Assembly (NCBI RefSeq): GCF_003334765.1
Contig: NZ_QOWT01000005.1
Direction: 5' to 3' (one strand)
Length of the DNA stretch: 64,000 nt
From: Escherichia coli
GTDB lineage: Bacteria > Pseudomonadota > Gammaproteobacteria > Enterobacterales > Enterobacteriaceae
Of the stretch, positions 56,818 through 57,187 are shown one piece after another. The notes beneath the pieces were generated by a model. The model saw only the letters and a list, made by a program, of their open reading frames with translations, did not search any database and was not told the origin of the DNA. Positions within the stretch are counted from its first letter, which is position 1. The number at the start of each line of letters is the position of its first letter. Made by a program: the position numbers and the translations under genes.

Positions 56818-57187
56818 ATACACCACGAAAAAATTGGATATCAAAAATAAAATGACAATAATGCGGTGGATTATATAGGCATAAAAGATAAATGAGATAG
56901 TATTTTCATCAGTGTGAAAATGAACATTGATTTAAATAATGAATTTGAGTTTTTTGTTTTTATTGTGAATGATATTTAATTTATGAATATATTAAGAAGG
57001 AGCCTTGTCCGGTCGCCTTAAATCGACAAAAGGCATTGTGGCGCTTCTGTGTAGTCTCTGACCTTATCGTAATCATTAATAAATACTATTTATTCGTCGT
57101 TTGTATTCATTGGGTTGATTATTAAGGTGCCGTTCGTTGCTGTTGCAACCTGTTTGTCACCGTTAATTATTTGTTACCCACAGAACT

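Follow-up and report, generated by a model that had tools for sequence, protein, structure and literature searches.

The AT-rich gap between aasR and yghO as the probable shared regulatory region of the Escherichia coli dihydroceramide genes

What controls the genes for ceramide synthesis in Escherichia coli, and why has no product of these genes been noticed in laboratory culture? The question is raised by a stretch of E. coli chromosomal DNA of 64 kb (contig NZ_QOWT01000005.1, the whole of which we call the window), in which an operon and a single gene of the same biosynthetic pathway are transcribed away from each other across a long AT-rich gap. A reading of this DNA from its letters alone, here the sequence-only reading, had taken the gap to be a divergent control region that is silenced by nucleoid proteins and conditionally expressed, and had suggested that silencing could explain the unnoticed product. 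As a sequence, the gap is an ordinary AT-rich divergent promoter region, uncharacterised, and its interest comes from the pathway that it controls. The explanation we favour, with a little more than even confidence, is that it is the shared regulatory region of the dihydroceramide genes, with two back-to-back promoters and their leaders, and is probably kept low by H-NS/StpA.

The genes on both sides are the published, already known sphingolipid (dihydroceramide) cluster of E. coli. To the left of the gap, on the minus strand, a 583-codon open reading frame (ORF; 55093-56844) encodes a fatty acyl-AMP ligase (871 bits against an NCBIfam cut-off of 600); next come the genes of an SDR-type reductase, of an acyl carrier protein of 82 aa and of a serine palmitoyltransferase that scores 599 bits against its NCBIfam equivalog cut-off of 500; the carrier protein and the reductase also have matches. 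To the right, on the plus strand, lies yghO (57188-58330), which has no NCBIfam family of its own and has been named the homologue of the N-acyltransferase gene aca (PMC9386255). In BL21(DE3) the Geiger laboratory designated the genes aasR (ECD_02851), epi (02852), acpR (02853), spt (02854) and aca/yghO (02850) (PMC9386255), and the same locus has been drawn in UTI89 by the Klein laboratory (bioRxiv 10.64898/2026.04.12.717747). The locus thus has the full set of a bacterial sphingolipid cluster, namely spt, a dedicated acyl carrier protein, an acyl-ACP synthetase, a reductase and an N-acyltransferase; the five ORFs are intact in the window and have LptF/G paralogues and a flippase-like gene as near neighbours. 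The 5' ends of the aasR operon and of yghO face each other with no gene between, which confirms the earlier description of biosynthetic genes transcribed divergently, aasR-epi-acpR-spt leftward and yghO rightward.

A known counterpart is the Caulobacter crescentus locus ccna_01212-01226, where the same five genes are clustered (spt, acpR, aasR, epi/cerR and aca/bCerS) with LptF/G paralogues nearby, and where, as in E. coli, the N-acyltransferase is transcribed apart from the spt operon. The regulatory DNA of the E. coli gap is unrelated to that of C. crescentus. In Caulobacter ceramides are a membrane component and the pathway is constitutive enough, as far as the statements citing Olea-Ozuna 2021 and Stankeviciute 2022 in PMC9386255 and bioRxiv 10.64898/2026.04.12.717747 go, whereas nothing in the literature that we searched reports a sphingolipid made natively by E. 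coli or a condition that induces it.

The limits of the gap depend on the starts of the two genes that flank it:

56818-57187, no strand assigned: the whole intergenic control region, from the aasR ATG at 56817 to the annotated yghO ATG at 57188 (370 bp, 31.6% GC)
56821-56826, minus strand: Shine-Dalgarno-like GTGGTG of aasR, inside the conserved block described below
57188-57208, plus strand: in-frame start candidates of yghO, ATG 57188 (annotated) and ATG 57206 (M7)

The ligase most likely starts at ATG 56817 (MSNKIFTHSLPMRYADF...), with GTGGTG before it, and not at TTG 56844; PGAP places the start at ATG 56817 or ATG 56784. In other genera, the alignment with most YghO homologues begins only at residue 5-7, which makes ATG 57206 a possible start of yghO. 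With these starts the true gap measures 370-388 bp and is slightly longer than the 343 bp of the sequence-only reading.

The coordinates and low GC content that had been given for this non-coding region are correct: 56845-57187 has 31.8% GC, compared with 51.7% for the 64-kb window, and contains no ORF of at least 40 aa. It is also the longest ORF-free gap in the window, as had been claimed (343 bp, followed by 318 bp at 7940-8257 and 287 bp at 43523-43809), though not the most AT-rich, as the gss-pitB gap (30.0% GC) and the yghT-yghS gap (30.1%) are AT-richer. The low-GC tract extends into both flanking genes (56747-57321, 575 bp, 33.7% GC). The flanking genes otherwise have ordinary GC content, the AT-richness being limited to the gap and the 5' ends of the genes, and the locus is therefore not an AT-rich foreign island. 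Within the gap the composition is tripartite, with 20.8% GC in 56845-56998, 51.4% in 56999-57070 and 34.2% in 57071-57187. The 100 bp from 56895 form the second least stable duplex in the 64 kb, and TpA steps occur 9.5 times per 100 bp in the gap and 4.3 times window-wide.

The runs of AATGAA and ATTTA to which attention had been drawn are present, and they are only marginally above chance. With both strands counted, AATGAA occurs three times against 0.69 expected (P = 0.03), and ATTTA in eight against 3.5 expected (P = 0.017), in dinucleotide-preserving shuffles and for words picked post hoc. These runs correspond to a pair of 15-mers that forms the clearest repeat of the gap:

56930-56944 and 56974-56988, plus strand: 15-nt direct repeat in two copies 44 bp apart, ATTTAAATAATGAAT and ATTTAATTTATGAAT

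The two copies are possible candidates for protein-binding sites, and the second falls inside a conserved block at 56960-56998. The word GTGAA-N4-ATTTAA occurs once in the window, within the gap.

How far does this DNA resemble regions that are silenced by H-NS and StpA? Such regions, for example bgl and leuO, or kps and hly in CFT073 (PMC9765446), have, like the gap, a long AT-rich and meltable tract at gene 5' ends. The likeness extends to genes poorly expressed in culture, AT-rich neighbours bound in CFT073 and an IS5 in K-12; the gap differs from them in its flanking genes of normal GC and in the lack of enrichment of the high-affinity motif. It is AT-rich well above the genome average over more than the 200-300 bp that at least are expected of an H-NS-silenced region. 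The motif TCGATAAATT is reportedly a high-affinity nucleation motif of H-NS; at up to two mismatches it has a single match in the gap (56978-56987), which is no enrichment, and there are 76 matches window-wide against 61 expected. Curvature, predicted with our own wedge-model calculation, is moderate at 56801-56960, about one third of the gap (around the 5th percentile of the window), and the rest of the gap is predicted straight.

The published ChIP-seq data for CFT073 bear on the question in part. Among the genes from kpsM to c3752, only c3714, yghS and yghT are listed as bound by H-NS/StpA, with ygiZ further on (PMC9765446, Data set S1). The first of these is acpR (249 nt, the sole gene of that size before yghS), and acpR, yghS, yghT and ygiZ coincide with other AT-rich tracts of the window. 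The gene bodies of the ligase and of yghO are absent from that list, which averages coding regions and deliberately excludes promoters (PMC9765446), so that the neighbours of the gap count as bound, its two flanking genes do not, and the promoters lie outside the analysis. IS5 reportedly favours AT-rich, H-NS-bound DNA (PMC11677980), and in K-12 an IS5 end lies at 57228. The supplementary H-NS/CRP data for ETEC H10407 do not mention the locus, and in the literature we found no derepression data for the gap in hns (stpA) mutants and no paper linking yghO, c3711-c3715 or ECD_02851 to H-NS, PhoP or ArcA. Silencing of the gap by nucleoid proteins is plausible and a reasonable reading of these data; we think that H-NS probably does occupy the gap, by a modest preference, and give about even chances to its being the main cause of the silence.

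The unlisted gene bodies and the unenriched motif would also fit an ordinary weak promoter pair under specific regulators, in which H-NS has no meaningful role and the laboratory fails to provide the inducing signal, for example a shortage of oxygen, a host cue or damage to the envelope. We regard this as a less likely alternative; it has to contend with the composition of the gap, which is more extreme than that of the neighbouring tracts bound by H-NS in CFT073. Its further evidence lies in the promoter and regulator sites discussed below.

Two other AT-rich patches of the locus deserve a remark. Within the operon, acpR and the 31-bp epi-acpR gap (53882-54221) form a second AT-richer patch, of 40% GC, and no gene of the biosynthetic operon other than acpR (c3714) appears among the listed H-NS/StpA-bound genes of CFT073. 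Just before the acpR start, on the minus strand at 54159-54175, lies a 10/12 PhoP-box-like match, TGTTTAAAGGTGTGTTA, which is probably due to chance, as some 13 such matches are expected per window. The yghT-yghS gap (45974-46292) is likewise divergent, has 30-35% GC and precedes yghS-yghR and the half of the locus with the flippase/LptFG-like genes; because yghS and yghT are H-NS/StpA-bound in CFT073, this gap may be the point from which the transport half is silenced.

In K-12 the whole cluster and the gap have been lost through an IS5-associated deletion:

57228-57231, no strand assigned: TTAA abutted by the K-12 IS5 end; everything leftward, into yghQ, is missing in K-12

For K-12, the simpler explanation of the missing product is thus this deletion. 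BL21(DE3) carries the genes, and its extracts with an empty vector contained no 3-oxo-sphinganine, which was formed when the BL21 spt was over-expressed (PMC9386255). That result fits low expression and has no bearing on its cause. The proposal that silencing explains why the product went unnoticed is therefore half the story: K-12 has lost the genes, and with BL21(DE3) the proposal is compatible as far as low expression goes.

To see which parts of the gap are constrained, we aligned ten Escherichia sequences, comprising six of E. coli (the window included), E. whittamii and three cryptic-lineage genomes. The gap proved to be a mosaic, with these parts:

56780-56899, minus strand: the most conserved 120 bp, holding the first codons of aasR, the Shine-Dalgarno-like GTGGTG, a leader of about 46 nt, the -10 and the -35 region
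56940-56959, no strand assigned: short T-rich variable stretch with single-base indels between strains (0.50-0.95 identity)
56999-57065, no strand assigned: hypervariable centre of 67 bp, about 48-51% GC, with two haplotypes (0.51-0.63 identity to haplotype B)
57078-57094, no strand assigned: perfect 8+8 palindrome AATAAATA-C-TATTTATT, kept in haplotype A and degraded in haplotype B

The block beside the ligase start is 0.93-1.00 identical in every Escherichia lineage compared, and a sliding comparison over a 3.2-kb stretch ranked its 120 bp as the most conserved of all, with a sharp drop in identity after 56900, so that the conserved stretch reaches barely beyond the predicted -35. For the most distant of the lineages, the 122 bp beside the ligase start are 93-95% identical to the window, compared with 64-71% at four-fold degenerate sites of the ligase and 77-85% at those of yghO (binomial P of 1e-10 to 3e-16 against the ligase rates and 3e-4 to 4e-6 against those of yghO). 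Judged by these comparisons, the 120 bp at the ligase start are under strong purifying selection across Escherichia, and the block looks as would be expected for a core promoter and leader. Together with the published sphingolipid genes, this supports the claim that the region is the divergent control region of the lipid operon.

The rest of the gap evolves differently. A second conserved block, 56960-56998, retains 82-100% identity, and sequence constraint on the yghO side is weak. The window, BL21, CFT073 and E. whittamii carry haplotype A of the hypervariable centre, and Santai, E1V33 and SCPM-O-B-8794 carry haplotype B; within the centre GCnTTAAAT alone is fixed (TTAAAT at 57018-57023). 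The yghO-proximal third also falls into two haplotypes, at 67-76% identity to haplotype B. As a control, the glcC-glcD gap (59246-59426) is, like the yghO gap, AT-rich, divergent and regulatory and has an ArcA-type direct repeat; it differs in being half as long and uniformly conserved (94.7-97% identity in the same genomes), while the yghO gap combines one invariant with two fast-evolving thirds. Given this control, what is unusual in the yghO gap is the two thirds that evolve fast rather than the third that is conserved.

Some individual genomes show the mosaic at close range. In E. whittamii (locus L006) about 420 bp corresponding to window 56960-57379 are 97-100% identical, with flanks of 83-93%, which suggests, from the identity profile, a recent recombination of yghO-side regulatory DNA across species boundaries. 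E. coli O157:H16 Santai has the divergent haplotype B beside E. coli-like coding sequence. At the far end of yghO, the window carries a 75-bp GC-rich insertion at 58331-58405 (...GCCCCTCGGGGAAAGGGTTAGGGTGAGGGTGAA...) between the convergent ends of yghO and glcC, which are 6 bp apart in the other strains compared; it resembles a small repeated extragenic element and has one copy in the window.

A hypervariable centre with two haplotypes might also be read as a decaying spacer, its AT-richness and variability reflecting relaxed selection on a cluster that is being lost in E. coli. The deletion in K-12 accords with this, as do the roughly 880 of 5426 complete E. coli genomes that have no match to 56700-57300, the approximately 400 that match it only in part, and strain DA33135, which is 100% identical to the window over 56700-57300 and whose ligase (L001 7397-9085) is annotated as a pseudogene with an internal stop, the window counterpart at 55093-56844 being intact. 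Decay is nevertheless very unlikely. The region is matched in 4545 of the 5426 genomes, in 4138 of them over at least 80% of its length; none of the five ORFs is broken in the window; the BL21 enzymes show activity once expressed (PMC9386255); and the 120 bp beside the ligase start stand far above neutral-site conservation. The 80-90% identity band, that of haplotype B, holds about 26 of the genomes, and another 490 or so have an intermediate, ST131-like form. The UPEC strain CFT073 and BL21(DE3) share one and the same gap sequence, which is about 97% identical to the window; three substitutions, an insertion of one base and a duplication of 5 bp separate the two. Coordinates of DA33135 and of the window differ by 3 bp upstream of 56700.

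If the gap is, as we favour, a pair of back-to-back promoters, the following elements are the candidates:

56870-56875, minus strand: candidate -10 TATAAT of the aasR-epi-acpR-spt promoter, with a predicted transcription start at about 56863
56893-56898, minus strand: poor -35 ATCTCA (3/6 matches, 17 bp upstream of TATAAT, score -1.2 bits)
57101-57128, plus strand: weak candidate promoter of yghO, TTGTAT-16-TAAGGT (start predicted near 57135)
56988-56993, plus strand: TATATT, a consensus match and alternative yghO promoter candidate
57136-57149, plus strand: small hairpin GTTGCTGTTGCAAC, scored as terminator-like in a scan and half deleted in haplotype B
57162-57176, plus strand: ArcA-like direct repeat GTTAATTATTTGTTA, two mismatches from the ArcA-type consensus and a lead only

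The TATAAT at 56875-56870 is invariant in 10/10 Escherichia sequences. One such hexamer is expected by chance in DNA this AT-rich, and the case for it therefore rests on its invariance and position. The poor -35 beside it suggests that the aasR-side promoter would be activator-dependent. On the other side, the candidate yghO promoter reads TTATAT-16-TAAGGT or TAACGT in haplotype B. Weak promoter-like matches are many in the gap, on both strands, and promoter- and terminator-like consensus matches in it show no excess over shuffles.

Sequence constraint without a conserved gene could also point to a cis-acting RNA (a riboswitch, thermosensor or attenuator), a leader peptide or a small RNA gene. 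Folding z-scores of regions in the gap range from -0.2 to -2.15, and the yghO-proximal 126 nt, at -2.15, fold somewhat better than shuffles; we dropped this fold as an RNA element, its central hairpin, the terminator-like one at 57136-57149, being half deleted in other strains and hence unlikely to be essential. The conserved block itself folds on neither strand in any way unusual against shuffles (z = -1.0 and -1.4), candidate leaders gave no significant fold either, and Rfam has no match at E <= 1 in the gap and its flanks. A 17-codon ORF (MFIFTLMKILSHLSFMPI), read by eye on the minus strand of the conserved block, has amino-acid changes in its first third and no Shine-Dalgarno sequence. None of the small ORFs of at least 20 aa in 56845-57187 is conserved between strains: a 21-aa ORF (56914-56979, plus strand) is frame-shifted elsewhere, where it crosses the indel stretch, and a 31-aa ORF (56981-57076, minus strand) falls in the unalignable hypervariable centre; both were rejected. 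By these searches an RNA element or small gene is absent from the gap, and an explanation of this kind has, in our judgement, a chance slighter still than that of decay.

The weak -35 brings us back to the alternative of specific regulators, for which the pairing of a poor -35 with an invariant -10, the conserved upstream block 56960-56998 with its 44-bp-spaced direct repeat and the ArcA-like repeat at 57162-57176 all speak. With an ArcA-type consensus that we take to be GTTAATTAAATGTTA, shuffles of the region reach such a match in 1.25% of cases (P = 0.0125), and the window contains three sites at two mismatches, the other two at 59266-59280, in the glcC-glcD gap, and at 2522-2536. These E. 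coli sites are candidates only, however, and the ArcA-like one, at P of about 0.01, lies downstream of the candidate yghO promoter.

Related species provide a further candidate regulator site. Taking one genome per species, we found 40 non-Escherichia loci with YghO homologues of 63-83% identity, nearly all in Enterobacterales plus two in Pseudomonas. The ligase is divergent from yghO in almost all of these 40 loci, across gaps of 271-1095 bp that always have lower GC than their surroundings. A blastn comparison of the E. coli gap with 44 loci of other species gave matches at the coding ends only, and the longer gaps of other genera share no ORF. Many non-Escherichia gaps have in common a non-coding element, conserved over about 100 nt (nhmmer E down to 1e-28), whose profile has no match in Escherichia at E <= 10; by-eye resemblances of GTGAA-N-ATTTAA and GCnTTAAAT to other genera were accordingly dropped as homology. 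Rfam found nothing at gathering threshold in ten related loci, and the element is not in Rfam. It ends in a conserved TGGTAAAAT, which is extended -10-like and faces yghO.

The element contains TAAACA-N5-TAAACA, the reverse complement of what we take to be the PhoP box consensus, (T/G)GTTTA-N5-(T/G)GTTTA. Seven Serratia species, Klebsiella indica, two Tatumella and one Pantoea have the box in perfect form (12/12), and another Pantoea has 11/12 (loci L013, L015-L018, L020, L022, L038, L039, L044, L045 and L047). The half-sites are invariant, with seven different spacers among the perfect boxes, and 2% of shuffled gaps have a match of at least 11/12. In Serratia bockelmannii (L013), for example, TGTTTA-N5-TGTTTA lies on the ligase-sense strand at about 3602-3618 in locus coordinates (gap 334-350). 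The orthologous gaps of Serratia, Klebsiella indica, Tatumella and Pantoea thus have the box of PhoP-activated Enterobacterales promoters, while the E. coli gap has none within two mismatches. The box in relatives may be taken to indicate dedicated regulators at the locus elsewhere, and in the literature searched no paper links PhoP with these spt clusters. A separate palindrome, TTGAATAA-N5-TTATTCAA or TGAATA-N3-TATTCA, recurs in several genera, in the gaps of L013, L022, L038, L020, L011 and L033; on the ligase-sense strand it precedes the start of the ligase by about 90-110 nt and overlaps the presumed -35 region.

We speculate that the Escherichia gap might be a lineage-specific switch, in which the PhoP module has been replaced by the invariant 120-bp block and the ArcA-like site and ceramide would be made only in response to a specific signal from the host or from low oxygen. 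We consider this unlikely as matters stand; if true, it would mean that the sphingolipid cluster of Enterobacterales is wired into envelope-remodelling regulons.

The shared regulatory region with H-NS/StpA that we prefer would work as follows. Leftward, aasR (the FAAL gene)-epi-acpR-spt would be transcribed from a sigma-70 promoter whose -10 is invariant and whose -35 is poor, through the leader of about 46 nt, and would require an activator; rightward, yghO, for the N-acyltransferase, would be served by weaker and less conserved promoter-like elements. The 575-bp tract, TpA-rich and easily melted, is the kind of DNA that H-NS and StpA coat. In ordinary culture, such coating together with intrinsically weak promoters would probably keep both transcripts low, and expression would require an activator or a counter-silencer. 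What the analysis shows is the anatomy of the gap, which genes flank it and the selective constraint on it; the promoters, the H-NS occupancy and the silencing are inferred.

The ceramide pathway is complete in most natural E. coli, BL21, CFT073 and UTI89 among them, and its enzymes work when expressed; the gap is the place where ceramide expression would be decided. The genus-fixed promoter on the ligase side, the variable remainder and the PhoP box in relatives give concrete fragments for reporters and footprinting. If expression proves switchable, sphingolipids in the outer membrane of E. coli, and their effect on the host, would become testable.
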